Origin: Escherichia coli
Lineage (GTDB): Bacteria; Pseudomonadota; Gammaproteobacteria; Enterobacterales; Enterobacteriaceae
Strand: one strand, 5' to 3'
NCBI RefSeq assembly: GCF_024502345.1
Contig: NZ_JALDNN010000001.1
DNA: 64,000 nucleotides
Shown: in pieces, positions 9,825 through 55,345 of the stretch
How positions within the stretch are numbered: position 1 is the stretch's first letter
Layout: each line of letters begins with the position of its first letter
Position numbers and translations under genes: made by a program
Notes under the pieces: model-generated
The model's database searches: none
What the model was told of the DNA's origin: nothing
The model's input: only the letters and a program-made list of their open reading frames with translations

Positions 9825-9860
9825 AGCAAAAAAGCGCCTTTAGGGCGCTTTTTTACATTG
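9825..9860 (-). terminator. Distal copy of the lysT-operon terminator
   Basis: Hairpin aaaaaagcgccctaaaggcgctttttt (minus-strand sense); second copy of a ~55 bp direct repeat. Confidence 0.6.
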
Positions 9861-9978
9861 GTGGGTCGTGCAGGATGACTCGCTTCGCTCGCCCTTCGGG
9901 CCGTCGCCGCGAGCGGCTCCGTTGTTTCGCTGCGCTCAACTCAAACCTGCTGCAGGTTCGAATCTTTGAGTATCGCAG

Positions 9979-10012
9979 ATAGCAAAAAAGCGCCTTTAGG
10001 GCGCTTTTTTAC
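9979..10012 (-). terminator. Rho-independent terminator immediately after lysQ
   Basis: Same GC hairpin plus T-tract directly 3' of the last tRNA. Confidence 0.75.
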
Positions 10013-10014
10013 AT

Positions 10015-10090
10015 TGGTGGGTCGTGCAGGATTCGAACCTGCGACCAATTGATTAAAAGTCAACTGCTCTACCAACTGAGCTAACGACCC
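10015..10090 (-). tRNA. lysQ: tRNA-Lys (anticodon UUU)
   Basis: 76 nt; reverse complement reads GGGTCGTTAGCTCAGTTGGTAGAGCAGTTGACTTTTAATCAATTGGTCGCAGGTTCGAATCCTGCACGACCCACCA. Confidence 0.95.
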
Positions 10091-10123
10091 CTTGCGGGAT
10101 TATGCTGCTTTAATCATTCAGGA

Positions 10124-10199
10124 TGGTGGGTCGTGCAGGATTCGAACCTGCGACCAATTGATTAAAAGTCAACTGCTCTACCAACTGAGCTAACGACCC
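10124..10199 (-). tRNA. lysZ: tRNA-Lys (UUU)
   Basis: Identical 76 nt tRNA-Lys copy. Confidence 0.95.
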
Positions 10200-10247
10200 A
10201 TACGGGTGTTACCTGAAAGATTTTTACTCGGGGCCAATCTTTAAGAT

Positions 10248-10323
10248 TGGTGGGTCGTGCAGGATTCGAACCTGCGACCAATTGATTAAAAGTCAACTGC
10301 TCTACCAACTGAGCTAACGACCC
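10248..10323 (-). tRNA. lysY: tRNA-Lys (UUU)
   Basis: Identical 76 nt tRNA-Lys copy. Confidence 0.95.
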
Positions 10324-10326
10324 GAG

Positions 10327-10402
10327 TGGTGGGTGATGACGGGATCGAACCGCCGACCCCCTCCTTGTAAGGGAGGTGCTCTCCCAGCTGAGCTAATCAC
10401 CC
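10327..10402 (-). tRNA. valZ: tRNA-Val (UAC)
   Basis: 76 nt; reverse complement reads GGGTGATTAGCTCAGCTGGGAGAGCACCTCCCTTACAAGGAGGGGGTCGGCGGTTCGATCCCGTCATCACCCACCA. Confidence 0.95.
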
Positions 10403-10453
10403 GATACTGCGCTAGATACTACAAACTACTTCCACCGAACCCACCGTAATTAG

Positions 10454-10529
10454 TGGTGGGTCGTGCAGGATTCGAACCTGCGACCAATTGATTAAAAGTC
10501 AACTGCTCTACCAACTGAGCTAACGACCC
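10454..10529 (-). tRNA. lysW: tRNA-Lys (UUU)
   Basis: Identical 76 nt tRNA-Lys copy. Confidence 0.95.
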
Positions 10530-10531
10530 GG

Positions 10532-10607
10532 TGGTGGGTGATGACGGGATCGAACCGCCGACCCCCTCCTTGTAAGGGAGGTGCTCTCCCAGCTGAGCTA
10601 ATCACCC
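10532..10607 (-). tRNA. valT: tRNA-Val (UAC)
   Basis: Identical 76 nt tRNA-Val copy. Confidence 0.95.
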
Positions 10608-10742
10608 GATACTACGCTGGATACTACAACTAACTATGTTAGTGGTGGGTCGTGCAGGATGACTCGACTTCGTCTCGCCCTTCGGGCCGTTGCTGATGCA
10701 ACGTTATCCTTCACGTTTTACTACCGCTTCCACCTTAGCGAT

Positions 10743-10818
10743 TGGTGGGTCGTGCAGGATTCGAACCTGCGACCAATTGATTAAAAGTCAACTGCTCTAC
10801 CAACTGAGCTAACGACCC
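10743..10818 (-). tRNA. lysT: tRNA-Lys (UUU)
   Basis: Identical 76 nt tRNA-Lys copy; first gene of the operon. Confidence 0.95.
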
Positions 10819-10982: not shown

Positions 10983-11774
10983 TTACATCGCGTTCAGACG
11001 TTTTTGTGCCTGTTTAGCGCCATCAGTACCAGGGTATTTACTGATAACCTGCTGGTATACGGCTTTCGCTTTTGCGGTGTCACCTTTGTCCTGCATGATG
11101 ACGCCGACTTTAAACATCGCATCTGCAGCCTTTGGTGACTTCGGATAGTTTTTCACTACCGAAGCAAAATAGTACGCCGCATCATCTTTTTTACCCTTGT
11201 TGTAGTTTAACTGACCCAGCCAATAATTGGCGTTTGGCAGGTAAGTTGAATCAGGGTAATTTTTGATGAAATTCTGAAATGCCACCATTGCGTCATCCTG
11301 GCGGGATTTATCCTGCACCAGCGCAATAGCTGCATTGTAATCCGTGTTTGCATCACCGCTTTTCACCGGCGCGCCAGCATTCGCAGTACCAGCATCAGCT
11401 GTCGGCGTCGTTGATGCCGCCGCACCGCTTTGATCGACGCTGGTTGATTGCGCCGCTGCACCACCGCTGCTGAGGCTATCGATCTGCAACAGGATCTGCT
11501 TTTGCCGCTCCACGACCTGATTCAGTTGATACTGATTTTCCTGAATCTGACCACGCAGGGAATCAATATCGGATTGATTATCAGAGAGTTGTTGCTGGAG
11601 TTGGGTTAAAAGCTGGCTGTGAGCATTAGAAATACGCTCAAGTTGAGTGACGCGGTCTTCGACCGAGCCTGAGCCGACACTACTGATTGGTGCCTGAGCA
11701 AAAGCGGCCCAGGGGGCCGCTATACCAACCAGTAACGACAGACTCAATAGTTGATGTCTGAAGTTACTGCTCAT
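10983..11774 (-). CDS. cpoB: Cell division coordinator CpoB (TPR protein, Tol-Pal associated)
   Basis: 263 aa; signal peptide, coiled-coil region, TPR repeats; downstream of pal. Confidence 0.9.
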   Translation of the reverse strand: MSSNFRHQLLSLSLLVGIAAPWAAFAQAPISSVGSGSVEDRVTQLERISNAHSQLLTQLQQQLSDNQSDIDSLRGQIQENQYQLNQVVERQKQILLQIDSLSSGGAAAQSTSVDQSGAAASTTPTADAGTANAGAPVKSGDANTDYNAAIALVQDKSRQDDAMVAFQNFIKNYPDSTYLPNANYWLGQLNYNKGKKDDAAYYFASVVKNYPKSPKAADAMFKVGVIMQDKGDTAKAKAVYQQVISKYPGTDGAKQAQKRLNAM

Positions 11775-11783
11775 GCAATTCTC

Positions 11784-12329
<546 letters not shown>

Positions 12330-17063: not shown

Positions 17064-17176
17064 CAGATGTCTTCTTGACCGGCTTTGCCTGATTCGACGT
17101 GTTCAAGCGCCAGCGCGGTGATTACCCCAAACGAACAGGCAAGAAGCGTTCCCAGAATCCATGCGAAATACCACAT
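17063..17176 (-). CDS. cydX: Cytochrome bd-I oxidase accessory subunit CydX (37 aa)
   Basis: Manual translation of minus strand gives MWYFAWILGTLLACSFGVITALALEHVESGKAGQEDI; its stop overlaps the ybgE start; too short to appear in the ORF track. Confidence 0.85.
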   Translation of the reverse strand: MWYFAWILGTLLACSFGVITALALEHVESGKAGQEDI

Positions 17177-17190
17177 TTTTAGCTCCTTAC

Positions 17191-18330
17191 TTAGTACAGA
17201 GAGTGGGTGTTACGTTCAATATCTTCTTTGGTGATACGACCGAACATTTTCCAGTAACACCAGGCGGTGTAGAGCAGAATGATCGGTACCAGAACCACCG
17301 CAACCCAGGTCATGACGTTAAGCGTCAGCTGGCTGGAAGTTGCATCCCACATTGTCAGACTTGCGTTCATCATGGTGCTGGACGGCATCACAAACGGGAA
17401 CATTGCGATACCGGCTGTCAGGATGATGCAGGCCAGCGCCAGGGAGGAGAACACAAACGCCCACGCGGCTTTATCCATACGTGCAGTCAGGATGGTCAGC
17501 AGCGGCAGAACCACACCCAGTGCCGGAATAGCCCACAGAATTGGCGTGTTGTTGAAGTTAACCAGCCATGCGCCAGCTTCACGAACCACTTCTTTATTCA
17601 GTGGGTTAGAGGCTGCGTAATGGTCCATTGTCGATTTCACGACATAACCATCGATACCGTACATCACCCATACGCCAGCCAGTGCGAAACAGACCAGTGT
17701 CACCAGCGCAGCCACCTGAGCCGTTGCACGGGTACGCAGGTGCAGTTCGCCCACGGTACGCATTTGCAGATAGGTTGCGCCCTGAGTAATGATCATCCCT
17801 ACGCTCACCACGCCTGCCAGCAGGCCGAACGGGTTAAGCAACTGGAAGAAGTTACCGGTGTAGTACAGACGCAGATATTCATCAACGTTGAACGGTACGC
17901 CCTGCAACAGGTTACCGAACGCTACACCAATTACCAGCGGCGGAACGAAGCTACCAATGAAGATGCCCCAGTCCCACATGTTACGCCAGCGGGTTTCTTC
18001 AATCTTGGAGCGGTAGTCAAAACCGACCGGACGGAAGAACAAAGACGCCAGCACGAGGATCATCGCCACATAGAAGCCGGAGAACGCAGCGGCATAGACC
18101 ATCGGCCAGGCAGCAAAGAGTGCGCCGCCCGCGGTGATCAGCCAAACCTGGTTACCGTCCCAGTGTGGTGCAATGGAGTTAATCATAATTCGACGCTCGG
18201 TGTCGTTACGACCGAGGAAACGGGTGAGCATGCCCACCCCCATGTCGAAACCGTCAGTGACTGCAAAACCAATCAGCAGAACGCCAACCAGCAGCCACCA
18301 GATAAAACGCAATACTTCATAATCGATCAT
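17191..18330 (-). CDS. cydB: Cytochrome bd-I ubiquinol oxidase subunit II
   Basis: 379 aa polytopic membrane protein. Confidence 0.93.
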   Translation of the reverse strand: MIDYEVLRFIWWLLVGVLLIGFAVTDGFDMGVGMLTRFLGRNDTERRIMINSIAPHWDGNQVWLITAGGALFAAWPMVYAAAFSGFYVAMILVLASLFFRPVGFDYRSKIEETRWRNMWDWGIFIGSFVPPLVIGVAFGNLLQGVPFNVDEYLRLYYTGNFFQLLNPFGLLAGVVSVGMIITQGATYLQMRTVGELHLRTRATAQVAALVTLVCFALAGVWVMYGIDGYVVKSTMDHYAASNPLNKEVVREAGAWLVNFNNTPILWAIPALGVVLPLLTILTARMDKAAWAFVFSSLALACIILTAGIAMFPFVMPSSTMMNASLTMWDATSSQLTLNVMTWVAVVLVPIILLYTAWCYWKMFGRITKEDIERNTHSLY

Positions 18331-18345
18331 TTGACGACTCCTGTC

Positions 18346-19914
18346 TTAGCGTGCCGGCTGAGTAGTCGTGGAAGACTGCTCAAAGTGATAGCGACCGGTT
18401 TTCAGGCTGCTTGGGCCGAGGCGTGCAAACTTGAACATTAAGAACAATTCTGCCACCAGGAACAGGGTATACAGGCCGCAAATCAGCACCATTGAGAAGA
18501 TGAGATCGCCTGCGGTCAGTGACGAGTTCGCCACAGCTGTCGGCAGCACTTCACCGATAGCCCACGGTTGGCGGCCATATTCAGCCACGAACCAGCCCGC
18601 TTCTACAGCAATCCACGGCAGCGGAATACCGTACAGCGCGGCGCGCAGCAGCCATTTTTTCTCGCCAATGCGGTTGCGGATGACACTCCAGAAAGAGAGC
18701 GCGATGATTGCCAGCAGCAGGAAGCCACACGCCACCATGATACGGAACGCGAAGTACAGCGGCGCTACACGCGGAATGGAGTCTTTGGTTGCCTGTTGAA
18801 TCTGCGCTTCAGTCGCATCAGCCACGTTTGGCGTATAGCGTTTCAGCAGCAGACCGTAACCGAGGTCTTTCTTCATGCTATTGAACTGGTCACGAACTGC
18901 CTGGTCGGTAGAACCAGAACGCAGTTGCTCGAGCAGAGAGTACGCCTTCATCCCGTTACGAATGCGTTCTTCATGCTGCACCATCAGTTCTTTCAGGCCG
19001 ATAACTGGAGTATCCACGGAACGCGTTGCAATGATGCCCAGCGCGTAAGGGATCTGGATCGCAAATTTGTTCGTCTCCTCTTCCTGATCAGGAATGCCGA
19101 ACAGAGTAAAGGCAGCAGGCGCAGGTTGCGTTTCCCACTCGGCTTCAATAGCAGCCAGTTTGGTTTTCTGCACGTCGCCCATTTCGTAACCAGATTCATC
19201 ACCCAGAACAATAACAGACAGAACGGCAGCCATACCGAAGCTGGCAGCGATAGCAAAGGAGCGTTTAGCGAAGGCGAAGTCACGACCTTTCAGCATATAC
19301 CATGCGCTGATACCGAGGATGAACATCGCGCCAGTCACATAACCAGACGCTACAGTGTGAACGAATTTCACCTGAGCAACCGGGTTAAGCACCAGCTCGG
19401 AGAAGCTCACCATCTCCATACGCATAGTTTCAAAGTTGAAATCGGACGCGATTGGGTTTTGCATCCAGCCGTTCGCAACCAGAATCCACAGTGCGGACAG
19501 GTTTGAACCGAGCGCCACCAGCCAGGTGACACACATATGCTGAACTTTACCCAGACGATCCCAACCGAAGAAGAACAGACCTACAAAGGTGGATTCGAGG
19601 AAGAAGGCCATCAGACCTTCGATTGCCAGCGGCGCACCGAAGATATCCCCTACATAGTGGGAATAGTAAGACCAGTTAGTCCCGAACTGGAACTCCATGG
19701 TCAGACCGGTAGCCACACCCAGAGCGAAGTTGATACCAAACAACTTGCCCCAGAACTTGGTCATATCTTTATAAATCTGTTTGCCGGAAAGGACGTAGAC
19801 CGTTTCCATAATGGCCAGCAGGAACGCCATACCGAGCGTCAGTGGCACAAAAAGGAAGTGGTACATCGCGGTCAAGGCAAACTGTAAGCGCGACAGTTCG
19901 ACTATATCTAACAT
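18346..19914 (-). CDS. cydA: Cytochrome bd-I ubiquinol oxidase subunit I
   Basis: 522 aa from [12 protein letters not shown]; ORF-track start is one codon upstream. Confidence 0.93.
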
Positions 19915-20719: not shown

Positions 20720-21664
20720 ATGAGTCCTGATAATATCGGTTCGGCTGTCAATCGCTTCTCAGGTTGGCCATCTAATGATCCTCTAAAAACAGATGAAGAA
20801 TCAATGAAATCACCCGTGACTGTGCAAGTAATAAAGATGATTGCCGCCATCCTTGACCCACATCGGATAGTCGTTGGAATTGATACACTTTATACAACGC
20901 AGCGCGAAACATTTACCTCAGAGAGTCAACAGCTCATTGAATCAGCATTGCAAACACTTCATGTGATGAATTTAAATAATCTGGAAACAAATCGCGATGA
21001 AGAAGGTCACTATCTGGCTTTTGAATATAACGTTGACACCTCTGACAGAATAACCGTTTCTGCTTATAATGAAAAAAAGCCTGGCTGCTATGGCCAATGT
21101 CTTTTAATACAGGATGACGAAACAGACTTATTTAACCTGATAAAAATTAAAATTTTCGAAGCCAGGCATAATTATGTCGCTCAATTGATGAGCGATCCGG
21201 AATTTATGTTCAAATTCAGTTATAGCGCTCAACAAAATAGATTAGAACCTCATCTTCTGGTTCCCGCTTATTTCCCTCTAAAAACAAACGAACCGGTTAC
21301 GCAAGAGGATGTACTGTTACTTTATCGTTTCTTTAAAATGAATGATGATTTTAATAAATTAACATCAGAGGAATACATGAGTATCATGACTCCTCTGATG
21401 AAGTGTGAGCGTAGCGTCCACGACAACAACAGGTATGTGACGGGCAAAGATACCCATCTTCTGGACTATCCTCCTTCTGGTAACCAGATACATTTCCATA
21501 TTTTTCCTGACGAATCAGCAACACTAGTCCTTTATTTTTCAAACAATGACCTTGAATGTTTCGTCTTTGAAAGAGATATTCCTAGCCAGTATCGCTTTTT
21601 CAAAATGTTTACCAATCTGGCACTGGTTATAGATCAGTTAACCGAAGCCAATAAAATACTTTAA
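20720..21664 (+). CDS. Hypothetical protein, 314 aa, low-GC, no recognisable domain
   Basis: Long ORF with GAGG RBS 9 nt upstream; GC visibly lower than flanking core genes; polar Ser/Thr/Asn-rich N-terminus; absent from the K-12 arrangement. Confidence 0.6.
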   Translation: MSPDNIGSAVNRFSGWPSNDPLKTDEESMKSPVTVQVIKMIAAILDPHRIVVGIDTLYTTQRETFTSESQQLIESALQTLHVMNLNNLETNRDEEGHYLAFEYNVDTSDRITVSAYNEKKPGCYGQCLLIQDDETDLFNLIKIKIFEARHNYVAQLMSDPEFMFKFSYSAQQNRLEPHLLVPAYFPLKTNEPVTQEDVLLLYRFFKMNDDFNKLTSEEYMSIMTPLMKCERSVHDNNRYVTGKDTHLLDYPPSGNQIHFHIFPDESATLVLYFSNNDLECFVFERDIPSQYRFFKMFTNLALVIDQLTEANKIL

Positions 21665-21744
21665 TTTTCTATATATCCCTATGGCAAATATTGCTAAACA
21701 ATGCCTGGGGATTAATTTTTATTACTCACGGAAAGATTTAAATA

Positions 21745-22167
21745 ATGATACCATCTCAGATCTCTTTCAATACCCTTCCAGTCAATGCAACATACGCTTC
21801 AGAGACAACAGTTGACACACAAAAATTCTCTGACATCCTCTACTCAGCGGGGTGTTCCCTAAAGGATATGGCTTATCTGAGCAGATGTCTGGCATCAATA
21901 CACCCGACTCTCGCCAAAAACATTTATGAAACAGAAAATCTCAGCGATCAAAAATTACTGCATATTGATTGCCGTAGTACAAATGACATCAAGATAAATA
22001 TCTTTTTTGGTCAGCAACGAGAAGGATTAATTGAAATTAGTTCTGACACAGTTATTTTTTCGATACTGTCTTCATTGATTGACTCCGCCATTTCTAAATT
22101 TCAACATCAAAACCCCGTTAACGGTTCAGTTAATCCTGAACTATTGTATAAGGATTATACTGATTAA
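21745..22167 (+). CDS. Hypothetical protein, 140 aa, low-GC
   Basis: ORF 80 bp downstream of the 314 aa ORF, same strand and same composition; Ser/Thr/Ile-rich N-terminus. Confidence 0.5.
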   Translation: MIPSQISFNTLPVNATYASETTVDTQKFSDILYSAGCSLKDMAYLSRCLASIHPTLAKNIYETENLSDQKLLHIDCRSTNDIKINIFFGQQREGLIEISSDTVIFSILSSLIDSAISKFQHQNPVNGSVNPELLYKDYTD

Positions 22168-22714
22168 ACCCACCCAGTCGCGAAAAATGGCCTGCGTTAT
22201 TGCCAGACGTAATAAAACCGTTGATTAACGTTACTCATACTGGTAGCACCTTCATGTACCTCTCTTTTTTACGAAAAATCAAAAGAGCTAACTAAGGTCA
22301 TAATTCGCATGAATCATTAACCATTTGTTATTTTCAACATTATTTTTACATTAAGCAGAAATGAATTGCAGTGAAATTCGACTTAAATCTTATGAAATGC
22401 ATTTACTCATGGCTAAAACCACGTCACAAAAATGCAAATTAGAAGTAGATCACAATTATCTCAATACATTAAATCAAGTTAATTTTAAAAATTTAACATT
22501 CATGTCATTAGTTGACATAACACACTGAATTAACATGGAAATTTAAAAACACACTTTAAACAATCATTTCCCGAAAGACATTTTGAAAATAGATCAATTG
22601 CAACATTACGGTCAGATAAAGACACTCCTGTGATATTAAACCTGTGCCGTTATGAACGGCCATAAATACGACGTGTGTAACTTATTTTACTCTCTGTCTT
22701 ACAAAGGATTACCC

Positions 22715-23164
22715 ATGAAGAAAGCAACACTTGTGATTGGCGTTATTGGCGCGGACTGCCATGCAGTAGGCAATAAAGTTCTGGACCGCGTTTTTAGCAA
22801 CCACGACTTCAGAGTCATTAATCTGGGCGTAATGGTCAGCCAGGACGAATATATTGATGCTGCCATCGAAACTGGCGCTGACGCGATTATCGTCTCCTCT
22901 ATCTATGGGCATGGCGATATCGACTGTCTGGGCATGCGCGAACGCTGCATCGAGCGTGGACTGGGTGACATCCTCCTCTATGTGGGCGGTAACCTGGTGG
23001 TCGGAAAACATGACTTCGCTGACGTGGAAACCAAGTTCAAAGAGATGGGATTTGATCGCGTCTTTGCCCCAAGTCATGACTTAGAAGATGTTTGTCAGCT
23101 GATGGCCCACGATATCAATCAACGTCATGACGTTGATACTCGTATTCTTGAAGAGGCTATCTGA
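22715..23164 (+). CDS. glmS: Glutamate mutase (methylaspartate mutase) S subunit, B12-binding
   Basis: 149 aa from [22 protein letters not shown] (cobalamin-binding DxHxxG-type motif); RBS aagga upstream; ORF-track start at 22652 is an extension. Confidence 0.85.
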
Positions 23165-24552
23165 TGCAAATCGTCTCTGTCGATATTGGATCGACGTGGA
23201 CCAAAGCTGCCCTCTTCACCCGGGAGGGGGACGCGTTAACGTTGGTTAACCACGTACTGACCCCAACCACCACCCATCATCTGGCGAAGGGGTTTTTCTC
23301 CAGCCTGAACCAGGTGTTAAACGTAGATAATGCCCTCCCCCTGTTAAACAGCGGTGAGGTTGCATTGAAGTATTCCTCCTCTGCCAAAGGTGGGCTGGCG
23401 GTTGCCGCAATGGGATTGGTGCCTTCTATCACCCTGGAAACCGCGAAAGTAACCGCTCACTCTGCGGGGGCTAAAATTGCGCAATATTACGCCTACAAGC
23501 TGAACCGCCGTGATATCCAGGCACTGGAAGAAACGCAGCCCGATATTCTCTTGTTCACCGGCGGCACCGACGGCGGAGAAGAAAGCTACGGACTGAATAA
23601 CGCCCGTGTGCTGGCAGAATCCAAACTCGACTGCGCCATTATTTATGCCGGAAACCGGGATATTCAGGACGAGGTGCAGGAGATCCTCGGGCATAAAGAC
23701 CTGACCATCGTCGACAATGTTCTGCCCGATCTTGACCATCCGAACCCTTTAGCCGCACGCCAGGCTATTTGCGACATATTCCTTAAACGCATCGTTAAAG
23801 GGAAAGGGCTGGATGTCATTGTTGATAAAACAGGCGAAGAACCAATGCCGACACCATGGACGGTCTTTGAACTGGTCAAGGCAATCAGTAACGTCGATCA
23901 CAGCTGGAAAGAGTTCATGCTGATCGACATGGGCGGCGCAACCACCGATGTTTATTCCGCCGGTGCCAACACGCTCTCGCCCGACACCGTTTTACACGGC
24001 GTACCGGAACCCTTCGTAAAACGGACGGTGGAAGGCGATCTGGGAATGCGCGTCTCGGCAGTGGTGGTTGGTGAAAGTGCGAAAGAGTTAGTCAATGTGA
24101 ATTTTGCTCAGCAACCCGCACAGCTGGACGCTTTTTATCATTACCTCCGTCATCTAGTCGCTCATCCCGACTACTTACCCGCAAATGCAGAAGAGAAATA
24201 TTTCGATACCGTCCTGGCCGGACTGTGTGTGGGTTATGCCACCGAAAGACATGCGGGCACCAAAAAAGAGGTCTGCACCTGCGTCGGCAATGTCGATTTA
24301 CAGATGGGACGTGACCTGACAACCGTGCGTAAAGTCGTCGGATCCGGCGGATGGCTCTCGCGTGCCAGTCAGTTCGATATGCATCACTGGTTGAAATACC
24401 GCGAGTTAAACGACGACGGTAAACGCATTCTCTTACCGACCGAATTTGAATATTACCGCGATTCCCGGGGGCTATTACCACTGCTGGCAAACGTCGCCAG
24501 AGTCGATCCGCTGGCCGCCGCGCGCACCAGTATTCAATGCTTAACCCTATAA
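23164..24552 (+). CDS. glmL: Glutamate mutase-associated protein GlmL (MutL-like)
   Basis: 462 aa; start overlaps the glmS stop (ATGA); sits between the S and E subunits as in clostridial glutamate mutase operons. Confidence 0.8.
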   Translation: MQIVSVDIGSTWTKAALFTREGDALTLVNHVLTPTTTHHLAKGFFSSLNQVLNVDNALPLLNSGEVALKYSSSAKGGLAVAAMGLVPSITLETAKVTAHSAGAKIAQYYAYKLNRRDIQALEETQPDILLFTGGTDGGEESYGLNNARVLAESKLDCAIIYAGNRDIQDEVQEILGHKDLTIVDNVLPDLDHPNPLAARQAICDIFLKRIVKGKGLDVIVDKTGEEPMPTPWTVFELVKAISNVDHSWKEFMLIDMGGATTDVYSAGANTLSPDTVLHGVPEPFVKRTVEGDLGMRVSAVVVGESAKELVNVNFAQQPAQLDAFYHYLRHLVAHPDYLPANAEEKYFDTVLAGLCVGYATERHAGTKKEVCTCVGNVDLQMGRDLTTVRKVVGSGGWLSRASQFDMHHWLKYRELNDDGKRILLPTEFEYYRDSRGLLPLLANVARVDPLAAARTSIQCLTL

Positions 24553-24570
24553 CAATTAAGGCTGCAATCA

Positions 24571-26016
24571 ATGGAACTTCGAAATAAGAAATTAACCCAT
24601 GACGAATTCATGACCGAGCGGCAACAGGTACTGAAAACCTGGGAAACCGGCAAGGATGTTGAAAACTTTGAAGATGGCGTTAAATACCAACAAAACATTC
24701 CTGAGCATAAACGCTTCTCTCATGCCCTGCTGAAAGCAGACAAGGAAGGTAAAACCCTTAGCCAACCGCGCGCAGGTGTGGCGCTGATGGACGAACACAT
24801 CGAACTGCTGAAAACACTACAAGAAGAGTGCGATCTGCTGCCAAGCACCATCGATGCATATACCCGTCTGAATCGGTACGAAGAAGCGGCTGTAGGGATT
24901 AAAAAATCCATCGAAGCCGGAACCTCTAAACTGAACGGTTTACCGGTAGTTAACCATGGTGTCGCAGCTTGCCGTCGCCTCACCGAAACCCTGCAAAAAC
25001 CGCTACAGATCCGCCACGGCACGCCAGATGCGCGTCTGCTGGCTGAAATCTCAATGGCCAGCGGCTTTACCAGTTATGAAGGCGGTGGCATTTCCTACAA
25101 CATTCCGTATGCCAAACGTGTAACGCTGGAAAAATCGATCCGCGACTGGCAGTACTGCGACCGTTTAATGGGGATGTACGAAGAACACGGGATCCGCATC
25201 AACCGCGAACCGTTTGGCCCACTAACGGGTACGCTGATCCCGCCGTTTATCTCGCACTCTATCGCGATAATCGAAGGCTTGCTGGCGCTGGAACAGGGTG
25301 TGAAATCTATCACCGTTGGTTATGGCCAGGTCGGCAGCCTGACGCAGGATGTTGCGGCGATCCAGTCTCTGCGTGAACTTGCACACGAATACTTTCAGAG
25401 CTATGGCTATACCGACTATGAATTAAGTACCGTGTTTCACCAGTGGATGGGCGGCTTTCCGGAAGACGAATCGAAAGCGTTCGCTATTATCTCCTGGGGC
25501 GCAGCCGTCGCGGGGATGTCTGGTGCCACCAAACTCATCACCAAAAGTCCGCACGAAGCCTGGGGCATTCCGACTGCCGCTGCCAACATTCAGGGGCTGA
25601 AAGCCTCCCGCCAGATGCTCAACATGGTCAATGAGCAGAAATTCCCGCCGTGCCCTGCGGTTGAACTGGAAATTGAACTGATTAAGAGCGAGGTTCGCGC
25701 AGTACTGAATAAAGTGTTCGAACTGGGTAATGGTGATATTGCGCGCGGAACGGTGCTGGCATTTGAAGCGGGCGTACTGGATGTGCCGTTTGCGCCAGCC
25801 GCCTGCAACGCGGGCAAAATTCTTCCGGTCCGTGACAACACCGGCGCGATACGCGTACTGGAAGCCGGAGCCGTTCCATTGCCAAAAGATATTCTCGACC
25901 TCCACCACGATTACGTTGCGGAACGCGCACGCTGTGAAGGACGCCAACCGACATTCCAGATGGTTGTAGATGACATCAATGCTGTATCCCACAGTAAATT
26001 AATAGGAAGACCATAA
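24571..26016 (+). CDS. glmE: Glutamate mutase (methylaspartate mutase) E subunit
   Basis: 481 aa, typical E-subunit size and operon position. Confidence 0.85.
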   Translation: MELRNKKLTHDEFMTERQQVLKTWETGKDVENFEDGVKYQQNIPEHKRFSHALLKADKEGKTLSQPRAGVALMDEHIELLKTLQEECDLLPSTIDAYTRLNRYEEAAVGIKKSIEAGTSKLNGLPVVNHGVAACRRLTETLQKPLQIRHGTPDARLLAEISMASGFTSYEGGGISYNIPYAKRVTLEKSIRDWQYCDRLMGMYEEHGIRINREPFGPLTGTLIPPFISHSIAIIEGLLALEQGVKSITVGYGQVGSLTQDVAAIQSLRELAHEYFQSYGYTDYELSTVFHQWMGGFPEDESKAFAIISWGAAVAGMSGATKLITKSPHEAWGIPTAAANIQGLKASRQMLNMVNEQKFPPCPAVELEIELIKSEVRAVLNKVFELGNGDIARGTVLAFEAGVLDVPFAPAACNAGKILPVRDNTGAIRVLEAGAVPLPKDILDLHHDYVAERARCEGRQPTFQMVVDDINAVSHSKLIGRP

Positions 26017-27257
26017 TGAAAATAAAACAGGCCCTGTTCACCGCTGGCTATTCCTCATTCTATTTCGATGACCAGCAGGCGATAAAAAACGGAGCGGGTC
26101 ATGACGGCTTTTTTTATACCGGGGAGCCGGTAACACAGGGGTTTAACGCCGTTCGTCAGGCCGGGGAGTGCGTATCGGTACAGTTGATTCTGGAAAACGG
26201 CGCGGTCGCCGTAGGTGACTGTACTGCCGTACAGTATTCCGGGGCAGGCGGTCGCGATCCACTGTTCCTCGCAGAGCACTTTATTCCGTTCCTCAACGAC
26301 CATATCAAGCCATTACTGGTAGGCCGCGATGTGGATGCTTTCCTGCCGAATGCCCGTTTCTTCGACAAATTGCGTATTGACGGCAACTTGCTGCATACCG
26401 CCGTGCGCTACGGATTATCACAGGCGCTGCTTGATGCTACCGCGCTGGCAACCGGCCGTCTGAAAACTGAAGTGGTCTGTGATGAATGGCAGTTGCCACG
26501 CGTGGCGGAATCCATTCCATTATTTGGTCAGAGCGGCGACGATCGATATATCGCCGTCGATAAGATGATCCTTAAAGGCATCGACGTGCTGCCCCATGCG
26601 CTGATTAATAACGTCGAAGAGAAGCTGGGCTTTAAAGGTGAAAAACTGCGCGAATATGTCCACTGGCTGTCGGATCGCATTCTGAGCAAGCGCACCAGCG
26701 CACGCTACCACCCAACCCTGCACATCGATGTATACGGCACTATCGGTCTGATCTTCGATATGGATCCGCTTCGCTGTGCGCAATACATCGCCAGCCTGGA
26801 AAAAGAAGCGCAAGGCCTGCCGCTCTACATCGAAGGGCCGGTCGATGCCGGTAACAAGCCCGATCAAATTCGCCTGCTGACCGCGATTACCAAAGAGCTG
26901 ACGCGCCTCGGTTCCGGCGTGAAAATTGTGGCCGATGAATGGTGTAACACCTACCAGGATATTGTTGATTTCACTGATGCTGCCAGTTGTCACATGGTGC
27001 AAATCAAAACCCCGGATCTGGGCAGTATTCACAACATCGTCGATGCGGTTCTTTACTGCAACAGCCACAGCATGGAAGCGTACCAGGGCGGCACCTGCAA
27101 TGAAACTGATGTCAGTGCCCGCACCTGTGTCCACGTCGCCCTTGCCGCTCGCCCTATGCGTATGCTGGTAAAACCAGGGATGGGCTTTGACGAAGGCCTC
27201 GATATCGTCTTCAACGAAATGAATCGTACTATCGCGCTGTTGCAGGCTAAGGATTAA
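26016..27257 (+). CDS. mal: 3-Methylaspartate ammonia-lyase (methylaspartase)
   Basis: 413 aa; N-terminus (FYFDDQ.AIK.GAGHDGF.YTG ... AVQYSGAGGRDPLFLA) closely resembles clostridial methylaspartase (enolase superfamily). Confidence 0.9.
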   Translation: MKIKQALFTAGYSSFYFDDQQAIKNGAGHDGFFYTGEPVTQGFNAVRQAGECVSVQLILENGAVAVGDCTAVQYSGAGGRDPLFLAEHFIPFLNDHIKPLLVGRDVDAFLPNARFFDKLRIDGNLLHTAVRYGLSQALLDATALATGRLKTEVVCDEWQLPRVAESIPLFGQSGDDRYIAVDKMILKGIDVLPHALINNVEEKLGFKGEKLREYVHWLSDRILSKRTSARYHPTLHIDVYGTIGLIFDMDPLRCAQYIASLEKEAQGLPLYIEGPVDAGNKPDQIRLLTAITKELTRLGSGVKIVADEWCNTYQDIVDFTDAASCHMVQIKTPDLGSIHNIVDAVLYCNSHSMEAYQGGTCNETDVSARTCVHVALAARPMRMLVKPGMGFDEGLDIVFNEMNRTIALLQAKD

Positions 27258-27260
27258 CAA

Positions 27261-28631
27261 ATGGCTCGTTCTTTTAAAGTCTTATCGCCAACGGCAATCC
27301 TCGGGTATGGATTCCCGGAAGAGAGCTTCCGCAAAGCGATGGCAGAATCGCCCGATCTGATCGCCGTTGATGCAGGCTCTTCCGATCCAGGCCCCCACTA
27401 CCTCGGGGCAGGCAAACCGTTTACCGATCGCGCAGGGGTCAAGCGCGATCTGCGCTATATGATCACCGCAGGCGTGCAAAATAATATACCGGTGGTGATC
27501 GGAACGGCTGGCGGTTCTGGTGCCGCACCACACCTGGAGTGGTGCCGAGAAATAATTCATGAGATTGCCCGGGAAGAGCACCTCTCGTTCTCGATGGCGC
27601 TGATCCCGGCAGACGTTGACAAAGCCATCGTCCACCAGGCGCTGGATAACGGCAAAATCACGGCGCTGGAGTTTGTCCCGCCGTTAACCCACGACGCGAT
27701 TGACGAAAGTACGTATATCGTCGCGCAAATGGGCATCGAACCCTTCCAGCGTGCGCTAAAAGAAGGCGCGCAAGTGGTGCTGGGTGGGCGCGCTTACGAC
27801 CCGGCCTGCTTTGCTGCGCTACCGATCATGCAAGGCTTTGATGAAGGTCTGGCGCTGCATTGTGGGAAAATCCTTGAGTGCGCAGCAATCGCCGCAACGC
27901 CCGGCTCAGGCTCTGACTGTGCGATGGGCATCATTGATGACAACGGCTTTACGCTGAAGACATTTAATCCGAAGCGTAAATTTACCGAAACGTCAGCAGC
28001 TGCACACACACTGTATGAGAAATCCGATCCTTACTTCCTGCCAGGACCTGGCGGCGTGTTGAATCTGAAAGGCTGCACATTTAAAGCGGTCAATAACGGC
28101 GAAGTGTACGTCAGCGGTTCTAAGCATGAAGAAACGCCGTATGCCCTGAAACTGGAAGGTGCACGACGGGTGGGCTTCCGCTGTCTGACCATCGCCGGAA
28201 CGCGCGACCCGATTATGATCGCCGGGATCGATAAAATCATCGATGAAGTCAAAACCAGCGTTTCGCGTAACCTGTCGCTCGACGATGACAGCATTCGCAT
28301 CAATTTCCACCTGTACGGCAAAAACGGGGTGATGGGAGACCATGAACCGATGCAAACTGCCGGGCATGAGCTGGGGATTGTCCTTGATGTAGTTGCACCG
28401 ACCCAGGAAATTGCCAACAGCGTTTGCTCGCTGGTGCGCTCTACCATGCTGCACTACGGCTATGAAAACCGCATCGCTACCGCAGGCAATCTGGCGTTCC
28501 CGTTCTCCCCTTCTGATATCCAGGGCGGGCCGGTATACGAATTTTCCATATATCACCTGATTGAAGCCAACGACGCTCTGCGTTTTGATTTCCATATTGA
28601 ACAGGTGACGCCAGAAGGAGTTCAGGCATGA
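27261..28631 (+). CDS. Uncharacterised conserved protein (tentatively AtuA-like/DUF1446 type), translationally coupled to mal
   Basis: 456 aa ORF starting 3 nt after the mal stop; normal GC; family assignment is from memory and needs an HMM search. Confidence 0.7.
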   Translation: MARSFKVLSPTAILGYGFPEESFRKAMAESPDLIAVDAGSSDPGPHYLGAGKPFTDRAGVKRDLRYMITAGVQNNIPVVIGTAGGSGAAPHLEWCREIIHEIAREEHLSFSMALIPADVDKAIVHQALDNGKITALEFVPPLTHDAIDESTYIVAQMGIEPFQRALKEGAQVVLGGRAYDPACFAALPIMQGFDEGLALHCGKILECAAIAATPGSGSDCAMGIIDDNGFTLKTFNPKRKFTETSAAAHTLYEKSDPYFLPGPGGVLNLKGCTFKAVNNGEVYVSGSKHEETPYALKLEGARRVGFRCLTIAGTRDPIMIAGIDKIIDEVKTSVSRNLSLDDDSIRINFHLYGKNGVMGDHEPMQTAGHELGIVLDVVAPTQEIANSVCSLVRSTMLHYGYENRIATAGNLAFPFSPSDIQGGPVYEFSIYHLIEANDALRFDFHIEQVTPEGVQA

Positions 28632-28945
28632 AACAGTCAATTGTCTCACTGGCGCAAGTCATTCGTTCGAAAAATGCCGGACCTTACGAACTGGTTTTAG
28701 ATATTTTATTTAAAACGAAAGAAAACTATGAGCGAGTTAAATCATCAGGGCAATTAACCCCAGAACTGATTGCGCGCTTATATCATGTTGAACCTGACTT
28801 TATTCATCGTATTGTCTGGTTTGATCCTTCTAACGCAGTAAAAATCGTCATGCCACGAGATATTATCTCCGGGAATGTAGGTGACAATGATGTCTATGGT
28901 GCACAGCAACATGCACCTTTATTAAATATGAGTTTCGATTTGTAA
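28628..28945 (+). CDS. Small uncharacterised protein (tentatively DUF4387 type), overlaps upstream gene by 4 nt
   Basis: 105 aa ORF with ATGA overlap to the 456 aa ORF; last gene of the operon. Confidence 0.6.
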   Translation: MKQSIVSLAQVIRSKNAGPYELVLDILFKTKENYERVKSSGQLTPELIARLYHVEPDFIHRIVWFDPSNAVKIVMPRDIISGNVGDNDVYGAQQHAPLLNMSFDL

Positions 28946-29084
28946 AAATCCGAATACTTTTAGCCAACTGACATCCCGTCACTTATTACAGTTCAACACT
29001 TCAGCTATTTGTAAGGTTGTAATAGCAGGTAGATGCCTGAATCTCTATTCAGGCATCTACTTCTCCTGATTCTGATTTATCGCC

Positions 29085-29378
29085 GTGCACCTGATGGAGG
29101 AAAAAATGAAGAAAATAAGTTTAACCACGATGATTCTTTTGGCGCTGGTACTTGGAATGATTATCGGCGTAGTGCTCAATAACACTGTTTCACCGGAAAC
29201 AGCAAAACTCTATGCGCAAGAAATATCGATATTCACGACGATTTTCTTACGACTGATAAAAATGATTATCGCTCCGTTAGTGGTCTCTACCCTGGTGGTA
29301 GGTATTGCTAAAATGGGAGATGCCAAAGCCCTTGGTCGTATTTTTTCTAAAACACTCTTTTTATTTATTTGCGCCTCA
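29085..29378 (+). pseudogene. 5' fragment (about 98 codons) of a GltP/DctA-family dicarboxylate/amino-acid:cation symporter, truncated by IS1
   Basis: N-terminus [23 protein letters not shown]...[30 protein letters not shown] matches the conserved first TM segments of GltP-type symporters; frame runs into the IS1 left end and stops at 29405. Confidence 0.8.
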
Positions 29379-29433
29379 GGTGATGCTGCCAACTTACTGA
29401 TTTAGTGTATGATGGTGTTTTTGAGGTGCTCCA

Positions 29434-29709
29434 GTGGCTTCTGTTTCTATCAGCTGTCCCTCCTGTTCAGCTACTGACGGGGTGGTGCGTAACGGCAAAA
29501 GCACCGCCGGACATCAGCGCTATCTCTGCTCTCACTGCCGTAAAACATGGCAACTGCAGTTCACTTACACCGCTTCTCAACCCGGTACGCACCAGAAAAT
29601 CATTGATATGGCCATGAATGGCGTTGGATGCCGGGCAACCGCCCGCATTATGGGCGTTGGCCTCAACACGATTTTCCGCCATTTAAAAAACTCAGGCCGC
29701 AGTCGGTAA
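29434..29709 (+). CDS. insA: IS1 InsA protein
   Basis: 91 aa [43 protein letters not shown]... Confidence 0.95.
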
Positions 29710-30131
29710 CCTCGCGCATACAGCCGGGCAGTGACGTCATCGTCTGCGCGGAAATGGACGAACAGTGGGGATACGTCGGGGCTAAATCGCGCCAGCGCTG
29801 GCTGTTTTACGCGTATGACAGGCTCCGGAAGACGGTTGTTGCGCACGTATTCGGTGAACGCACTATGGCGACGCTGGGGCGTCTTATGAGCCTGCTGTCA
29901 CCCTTTGACGTGGTGATATGGATGACGGATGGCTGGCCGCTGTATGAATCCCGCCTGAAGGGAAAGCTGCACGTAATCAGCAAGCGATATACGCAGCGAA
30001 TTGAGCGGCATAACCTGAATCTGAGGCAGCACCTGGCACGGCTGGGACGGAAGTCGCTGTCGTTCTCAAAATCGGTGGAGCTGCATGACAAAGTCATCGG
30101 GCATTATCTGAACATAAAACACTATCAATAA
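29628..30131 (+). CDS. insB: IS1 InsB reading frame (expressed as InsAB' transposase by -1 frameshift)
   Basis: 167 aa ORF in the -1 frame overlapping the insA 3' end; classic IS1 organisation. Confidence 0.9.
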
Positions 30132-30146
30132 GTTGGAGTCATTACC

Positions 30147-30555
30147 AATCGCCGTTATTAGCTAAAGAATGAATATTAACAATAATATCGGGATGTAACT
30201 TTGTGAATTCATGTAAATTTGGGATTAACCAGTGGGTACTAAAAGTAGGATTAACGGCAAGTTCAATAACCTGAACCGTAGGCTGCCAGGTCATAATGGT
30301 ATTGGTATCGCGTTCCAGCTTATTTAATGTTTCTTTTACTATCCCCAGGTAATACTTCCCTGCATCATTAAGAAAAATGCGTTTTTTAGAGTGTGAAAAT
30401 AACGGAGTACGTAAAAATTCCTCCAGCGCACTTACTTGTCTGAATACTGCACTTTGGGTTAACGCTAACTCCTCTGCCGCTCTGGTATAACTTTCATGAC
30501 GTGCGACGACCTCAAAAGTCACCAGCAGTTCCGTTTTAGGTATTTTCCCTCGCAT
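30147..30555 (-). pseudogene. 5' fragment (about 136 codons) of a LysR-family transcriptional regulator, truncated by IS1
   Basis: N-terminal HTH typical of LysR (TFEVVARHESYTRAAEELALTQSAVFRQVSALEEFL); reading frame runs into the IS1 right end. Confidence 0.8.
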
Positions 30556-33329: not shown

Positions 33330-33525
33330 TGTCGGTCACCCGTAGGCCTGATAAGACGTGTAAGCGTCGCATCTGGCATCGCTTGTCGGATGCGGCGCGA
33401 GCGCCTTATCCGACCTACATCGGTGCTTCCCGTAGGCCTGATAAGACGCGTTAAGCGTCGCATCAGGCTTCAATTGCCGGAGAAGGCGATAATGTCTTAT
33501 CCGGTCTACAGTGCAGGTGAAACTT
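33330..33525. repeat. BIME/REP cluster in the sucB-sucC intergenic region
   Basis: Repeated gcctgataagacg...cgcatc palindromic units. Confidence 0.6.
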
Positions 33526-37739: not shown

Positions 37740-37865
37740 GTTACGCCTGATGCGCTGCGCTTATCAGGCCTACGGGTAATGACTTGTAGGCCGGATAAGG
37801 CGTTCACGCCGCATCCGGCACTGGTTGCCTGATGCGACGCTTGCGCGTCTTATCAGGCCTACGGT
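37740..37865. repeat. REP elements in the sdhB-sucA intergenic region
   Basis: gcctgatgcgctgcgcttatcaggcctac and repeated copies. Confidence 0.6.
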
Positions 37866-55209: not shown

Positions 55210-55345
55210 AGCACCGATGCCTGATGCGACGCTTGACGCGTCTTATCAGGCCTACGCATTTCCTGCAATTTATTGAATTTGCACAAATTTGTAGGCTGGA
55301 TAAGGCGTTCACGCCGCATCCGGCATCTGGGCTCGATTGCCTGAC
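55210..55345. repeat. REP elements between dtpD and phrB
   Basis: gcctgatgcgacgcttgacgcgtcttatcaggcctac and a second copy. Confidence 0.6.

Follow-up and report, generated by a model that had tools for sequence, protein, structure and literature searches.

A carrier pseudogene remnant and an IS1-bounded deletion in the glutamate-fermentation gene cluster of Escherichia coli

The stretch of Escherichia coli DNA analysed here (64,000 nucleotides of contig NZ_JALDNN010000001.1, assembly GCF_024502345.1; hereafter, the window) holds at positions 29106–29378, on the plus strand, codons 1–91 of a 426-codon DAACS/SDF carrier gene, and this stretch is a true gene remnant, not a chance open reading frame (ORF). 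Very probably it is a pseudogene remnant of the carrier gene, with IS1 having mediated the loss of 3,910 bp in this lineage. The event is of a known kind, gene decay through a mobile element, and it befell a cluster that has already been described.

The carrier remnant within the methylaspartate cluster

The cluster is the methylaspartate-pathway (glutamate fermentation) cluster, with the ancestral order glmS-glmL-glmE-mal-atuA-DUF4387-carrier-fumD-cobO plus a divergent LysR gene, located between cydA and sucD. Intact references are found in strains ETEC4077 (locus L003), MEW (L004), and GDSC2227PM (L017), with two hypothetical genes before glmS; the intact carrier gene measures 1,281 nt (9283–10563 in L003), and the intact fumarase, CobO, and LysR proteins have 550, 200, and 301 aa, respectively. 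The cluster was described by Kronen & Berg 2015 (PMC4682846, Fig 5) for E. coli O157:H7 and relatives, with the same carrier gene, drawn as ‘GltP’, a glutamate transporter, in the same position and among the same neighbours (glmS, glmL, glmE, mal, DUF1446/AtuA, FumD, CobA, and the LysR-type regulator, LTTR). By comparison, the window retains only codons 1–91 of the carrier gene, lacks fumD and cobA, and has a cut LTTR gene, with IS1 standing in their place. The sequence-only reading had put the carrier gene adjacent to a glutamate fermentation operon; the glutamate mutase and methylaspartase genes are indeed there, but the carrier gene is part of this cluster rather than merely adjacent to it. 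The cluster, as it now stands in the window, reads as follows.

22715–23164, plus strand: glmS, full length
23164–24552, plus strand: glmL, full length
24571–26016, plus strand: glmE, full length
26016–27257, plus strand: methylaspartate ammonia-lyase gene (mal), full length
27261–28631, plus strand: AtuA-family gene (456 aa), full length
28628–28945, plus strand: DUF4387 gene (105 aa), full length, overlapping the AtuA-family gene
29027–29062, plus strand: perfect 16-bp hairpin, AGGTAGATGCCTGAAT-CTCT-ATTCAGGCATCTACTT, in the 160-nt spacer between the DUF4387 and carrier genes
29106–29378, plus strand: carrier 5′ remnant, limited to TM1, TM2, and the beginning of TM3
29379–29405, plus strand: IS1-derived tail of the fused ORF (GDAANLLI and a TAG stop), giving a predicted product of 99 aa
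29379–30146, plus strand: complete IS1 of 768 bp, with Pfam InsA N- and C-terminal domains and DDE_Tnp_IS1
30147–30555, minus strand: 5′ remnant (409 nt; 136 codons and 1 nt of 301 codons) of the LysR-type regulator gene

Upstream of the carrier gene, the cluster is whole. When reference proteins were searched against the window with tblastn, GlmS, GlmL, GlmE, Mal, AtuA, and DUF4387 were recovered end to end, gapless, and at 97–100% identity, and the two hypothetical proteins were likewise intact from end to end, the entire upstream set including these two falling at 94–100% identity. Among the features that mark a methylaspartate cluster, glmS, glmL (mutL), glmE, and mal are thus present; the co-localised fumD, cobA/cobO, and an intact LTTR gene are absent.

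The identity of the carrier remnant is established by both family profile and alignment. Residues 1–91 match Pfam PF00375 (SDF) with an E value of 5.8e-17 and 62.2 bits, the gathering score being 27.9, and share 98.9% identity with residues 1–91 of the intact 426-aa E. coli carrier, so that the sequence-only reading, an inactivated GltP/DctA-like DAACS carrier keeping its N-terminal helices only, is borne out. The intact orthologues that it had proposed to look for in related strains do exist at the same position (ETEC4077, MEW, and GDSC2227PM), and those at this locus are annotated as ‘dicarboxylate/amino acid:cation symporter’ (426 residues); WP_000724204.1 is an example of an intact orthologue. 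The program-made list gives a 106-codon ORF with a GTG start (29085–29405); alignment with the annotated orthologues places the true start at the ATG at 29106, with a GGAGGA ribosome-binding site just 5′ of it, and the start at 29085 adopted in the sequence-only reading hence lies 21 nt upstream of the true ATG. Its end point of 29378 is exact: carrier sequence runs up to this base in the DNA alignment, and the left inverted repeat of IS1, GGTGATGCTGCC..., starts at 29379.

The complete DAACS architecture, with eight TM helices and the hairpins HP1 and HP2, is lacking in the window copy, which is a remnant of a family member: its Pfam SDF match spans profile positions 1–76 of 387 only, and tblastn across all 64 kb of the window recovered no carrier sequence past residue 91. 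The remnant would yield at most a 99-residue peptide made up of TM1, TM2, part of TM3, and eight IS1-encoded residues. The substrate and ion site of DAACS carriers is formed by HP1, TM7, HP2, and TM8, and the predicted peptide cannot transport because all four, that is, the whole transport domain, are missing. A 426-aa ORF at 17161–18441 was considered as a candidate carrier and proved to be merely an antisense frame of cydB.

The spacer in front of the carrier gene has a feature of its own. Its RNA fold gives a z-score of −2.9, and the hairpin at 29027–29062 is a weak terminator-like match with no clear T tract after it; the hairpin could act in transcript processing or attenuation, or be a REP-like element, setting the half of the cluster before it apart from the half after it. 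A scan for promoters and terminators around the locus returned counts close to those expected from shuffled sequence.

Beyond this locus, seven tRNA genes (five tRNA-Lys UUU and two tRNA-Val UAC) lie at 9859–10818 on the minus strand together with two RtT-type repeats (Rfam RF00391), and this tRNA cluster accounts for all internal repeats of the window except IS1, there being no other large repeats. Further gathering-level Rfam matches at 11745–11883, 33345–33415, 37789–37859, and 55248–55290 are ordinary for this region of E. coli. They are the CpoB/ybgF thermometer, which precedes cpoB; two REP-derived naRNA4 elements, located in the sucB-sucC spacer and the sdhB-sucA spacer; and the ES036 sRNA.

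The IS1 element, the missing segment, and the origin of the deletion

The element that ends the carrier gene has every feature of IS1. It is 768 bp long, it is bounded by the terminal inverted repeats GGTGATGCTGCCAACTTACTGAT and GGTAATGACTCCAACTTATTGAT, and it contains insA (29434–29709; Pfam Zn_ribbon_InsA and HTH_Tnp_IS1), the insB′ frame (29628–30131; Pfam DDE_Tnp_IS1, E 2.3e-78), and the A6C frameshift run (29685–29691). Across all 768 bp, it shares 99.0–99.9% identity with annotated copies, the closest being IS1B of strain 14EC033 (99.87%). The window contains one copy of IS1, which meets the carrier gene at 29378/29379 and the LysR gene at 30146/30147. A Shigella origin, to which the presence of IS1 might have pointed, was considered and set aside.

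Past the right end of the element, the sequence continues not in the carrier gene but in the LysR gene, which is divergent relative to the carrier cluster. The LysR remnant keeps its HTH_1 domain (Pfam E 1.6e-17); its LysR_substrate match covers only positions 7–41 of 209, and almost the entire effector-binding domain is therefore missing. In comparison with the intact references, exactly 3,910 bp are missing, corresponding to 9556–13465 of L003 and to 2091–6000 of L004, with window position 29378 equal to L003 9555 and window position 30147 equal to L003 13466. The missing segment consists of the following parts, in order.

Carrier gene, 3′ part: 1,008 nt
Spacer between the carrier gene and fumD: 107 nt
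fumD, whole (mesaconase / class I fumarase): 1,653 nt
Spacer between fumD and cobO: 9 nt
cobO, whole (cobalamin adenosyltransferase): 603 nt
Spacer between cobO and the LysR gene: 33 nt
LysR gene, 3′ part: 497 nt

The two whole genes are securely named, as the deleted fumarase scores 1,282 bits against the NCBIfam ‘class I fumarate hydratase’ equivalog NF011921 and the deleted CobO scores 295.6 bits against NF004637. No trace of either reference protein was detected by tblastn anywhere in the 64-kb window, and no compensating DAACS paralogue, FumA/B, or CobA homologue was found there at E ≤ 1e-3. The sequence-only reading had recognised the gene correctly; it had missed the IS1, the 3,910-bp deletion, the loss of fumD and cobO, and the cut in the LysR gene.

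In the window, a single IS1 now links carrier codon 91 to LysR codon 137, and two routes to this arrangement may be envisaged. In the first, a single IS1 insertion would have been followed by an IS1-promoted adjacent deletion; in the second, homologous recombination would have taken place between an IS1 copy in the carrier gene and another copy, in direct orientation, in the LysR gene. IS1-promoted adjacent deletion is a classical property of the element, known, for example, from the gal region, and such deletions have a single complete IS1 at the joint, no duplication, and a cut gene on one or both flanks, as in the window. Both routes fit, and the sequence does not separate them. The 9-bp target duplication is absent around the IS1: the two flanks differ (TGCGCCTCA versus AATCGCCGT), which means that the element is not a simple insertion. 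The missing duplication should be what a deletion or an IS × IS recombination product would leave, and it should not be held against the identity of the element as IS1.

Among the competing explanations, an assembly artefact deserves the first consideration, in which two IS1 copies around an intact 3.9-kb segment were collapsed into one. IS1 is a multi-copy repeat, and the independent public contigs that carry a junction all end inside IS1, none of them spanning the element, which lends this explanation some substance. However, the window runs continuously for 64 kb through the IS1, and the closed genome of 14EC033 has a true deletion of the same kind; a collapse is accordingly quite improbable. 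Had there been two IS1 copies, each would be predicted to retain a 9-bp duplication at its inner junction; even then, moreover, the carrier gene would still be broken at codon 91, and the observation of an inactivated carrier would stand.

It has also to be considered whether the cut ORF has some residual or new function, either as a small membrane peptide or through outward transcription of the LysR remnant driven by IS1. The ORF, fused to IS1 sequence, still has an intact start codon and Shine-Dalgarno sequence and a stop codon supplied by IS1, and the allele persists in several samples. Against this, only 76 of the 387 profile positions are left in the cut ORF, the substrate and ion sites of DAACS carriers belong to the C-terminal half that is gone, a neutral clonal marker would be expected to persist across samples too, and there is no sign of selection for the cut ORF, all of which makes such a function barely credible. 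The weakest proposal, that a simple IS1 insertion split the carrier gene and left its remainder and the neighbouring genes in place downstream, draws on the insertions without deletion that exist elsewhere in the cluster (E200086 fumD, ETEC4077 DUF4387, and MEW LysR-sucD) but is refuted for the window, since base 30147 right after the IS1 continues in the LysR gene and not in the carrier gene, no 9-bp duplication surrounds the element, and tblastn found no further carrier, FumD, or CobO sequence in the window. The IS1-mediated loss of 3,910 bp is therefore retained as the preferred explanation, and annotation as a pseudogene fragment is due for 29106–29378 and likewise for the LysR remnant.

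Spread of the allele and erosion of the island

Roughly one complete E. coli genome in five has the ancestral arrangement intact. The left part of the cluster is present in 1,135 of 5,426 complete E. coli genomes, and the carrier gene in 1,123 of them (about 21%), with full DNA coverage in 1,122; the 3.9-kb segment is covered to at least 80% in 1,122 complete genomes, and, as DNA coverage is blind to point mutations, these counts of intactness are upper bounds. In the closest complete genome, that of GDSC2227PM, the same locus is intact at 99.2% identity. Neither junction of the window was found by megablast in the 5,426 complete RefSeq E. coli genomes. With the IS1 included in the query, megablast returned 9,727 records, dominated by IS1 matches, of which only five reached 74% coverage, all of them in at least two pieces, and on the right side only one reached 63%.

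The junctions do recur in other public assemblies. The exact 99-aa product of the left junction was found in 14 public contigs and the exact 137-aa product of the right junction in 18. The sources of these contigs include human gut metagenomes and a draft NCBI assembly (GCA_050022275.1), and in the single sample ERZ27268145 both junctions are present. The flanks of these contigs are 99.9–100% identical to the window. As the public short-read contigs all end inside IS1, they confirm each junction separately and not the linkage of the two by one IS1. Because both junctions recur in independent assemblies with flanks of such identity, the allele is real and circulating, and the two IS1 junctions could be used as a clonal marker.

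A comparable allele occurs in the closed genome of 14EC033 (NZ_CP024147.1), where a deletion bounded by IS1 affects the same genes but has other end points. As in the window, an IS1 in the same orientation replaces the 3′ end of the carrier gene, fumD, cobO, and the 3′ end of the LysR gene; the carrier gene is cut at nt 471 in 14EC033 and at nt 273 in the window, and 102 nt of the LysR gene are kept in the former versus 409 nt in the latter. Given these differing end points, neither allele can derive from the other, and the two may represent either independent events or divergence from a common IS1 insertion.

The island that harbours the cluster (window 20720–30555; loci L001–L004 and L018) has been struck repeatedly, by IS1 at four sites, by IS903B, and by IS200. 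In 23CRST031, nearly the whole island is lost beside IS903B; IS1 lies in fumD in E200086, in the DUF4387 gene in ETEC4077, and in the LysR-sucD interval in MEW; and two strains carry IS200 insertions in the island. In E200086, moreover, an additional RtcB-family gene, absent from the window, separates the LysR gene from sucD. In K-12, the place of the island between cydA and sucD is taken by mngR-mngA-mngB. What emerges is an accessory island under erosion by insertion sequences in several lineages.

The intact carrier and the consequences for the pathway

The intact orthologue allows the family and the putative substrate of the lost carrier to be considered. Both gltP and dctA are core E. coli genes, and their K-12 products belong to the same Pfam family as the carrier, which is accessory. 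Alignment with them, the check proposed along with the sequence-only reading, gives clear DAACS similarity: the intact orthologue shares 39% identity over 422 aa with K-12 GltP (E 4e-87) and 37% over 372 aa with K-12 DctA (E 8e-76), and the fragment in the window shares 49% and 37% identity, respectively, with their TM1–TM3 regions. Against the NCBIfam GltP equivalog NF008440, with a cut-off of 638 bits, the intact orthologue scores 302 and the fragment 71.6, and against the DctA model NF002461, with a cut-off of 513 bits, the intact orthologue scores 312. Because these scores fall well under both cut-offs, the intact carrier, as judged from its sequence, is not orthologous to GltP or to DctA and belongs to a separate subfamily within DAACS; the original GltP/DctA label thus holds at the level of the family and not at that of the orthologue.

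Among solved structures, the best relatives of the intact orthologue are prokaryotic aspartate transporters (9bgz, E 1.3e-68) and GltPh, and it also matches solved GltTk and EAAT chains (E down to 1e-68). In GltPh, the Asp and Arg of TM8 (D394 and R397) bind the amino group and the distal carboxylate of the substrate, respectively. The corresponding TM8 motif is LDMGRS in the intact orthologue, LDMART in both GltP and 9bgz, and MSEARA in DctA; it is invariant in 119 of 120 homologues and has been lost from the window copy by the deletion. As the TM8 Asp and Arg are kept as in GltP, the pattern suggests an acidic amino acid, such as glutamate, as the substrate in preference to a plain dicarboxylate. 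From these residues together with the gene context, the intact carrier is most likely a secondary carrier of an acidic amino acid, the likeliest being L-glutamate, which would feed glutamate mutase. The TM7 motif differs from that of the models compared, reading NLVGS in 119 of 120 homologues at at least 82% identity (NLMGS in the one other) versus NLDGS in K-12 GltP, NLDGT in DctA, and NMDGT in the solved aspartate transporters, and the carrier clade has Asn in TM8 where GltPh has D405. The TM7 Asp, normally conserved, is a ligand of Na3 in GltPh and GltTk, and because it is replaced by Val, the coupling mechanism of the carrier may differ from that of the compared models.

For the pathway itself, the biochemical background was provided by Kronen & Berg 2015 (PMC4682846), who showed FumD to be a mesaconase/fumarase, reported mesaconase activity for FumA and FumB as well, and found glm and mal co-localised with fumD in all cases that they examined; the window allele is an exception to this co-localisation, made by deletion. 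In the same study, no condition was found that gave expression of the intact cluster in E. coli O157:H7, no citramalate lyase was found, and the fate of citramalate was left open. No newer literature on the glutamate mutase cluster of E. coli was found beyond that paper.

The AtuA-family and DUF4387 genes (27261–28945), conserved between mal and the carrier gene, have no NCBIfam match; the former was listed by Kronen & Berg (PMC4682846) as DUF1446, of unknown function, and a search of the literature on DUF4387 and AtuA returned nothing relevant. The pair is a candidate for the missing chemistry beyond mesaconate/citramalate in E. coli.

With the effector domain of the regulator, the dedicated mesaconase FumD, and the dedicated adenosyltransferase all lost, the cluster in the window is probably non-functional, or at least deregulated. 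CobO would be the dedicated cob(I)alamin adenosyltransferase that supplies adenosylcobalamin to glutamate mutase. Since E. coli normally has other glutamate carriers, the co-deleted fumD and cobO and the cut LysR gene would weigh more on the pathway than the loss of the carrier. BtuR, GltP, GltS, and GltIJKL are core E. coli functions, and it is plausible that core btuR, gltP, gltS, and gltIJKL, with FumA/FumB, could substitute, at least in part, for what has been lost.

A selective reading of the loss may also be entertained. Because IS-bounded deletions occur in both the window and 14EC033, together with a near-total loss in 23CRST031, repeated loss of the downstream half (carrier, fumD, cobO, and LysR) may be selected and not simply tolerated, with the retained glmSLE-mal-atuA-DUF4387 serving a separate function such as mesaconate production; as a separate proposal, the NLVGS clade may represent a DAACS variant with another mode of ion coupling or exchange. 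Such proposals are unlikely. The phenotypic or fitness cost of the deletion may be nil or negligible, given that even the intact cluster was silent in the published tests in O157:H7 and that no citramalate lyase was found (PMC4682846), and a cost of this order fits the repeated erosion of the island by insertion sequences. In metabolic reconstruction of the strain, the methylaspartate pathway should be treated as truncated, with no dedicated carrier, mesaconase, adenosyltransferase, or functional regulator.
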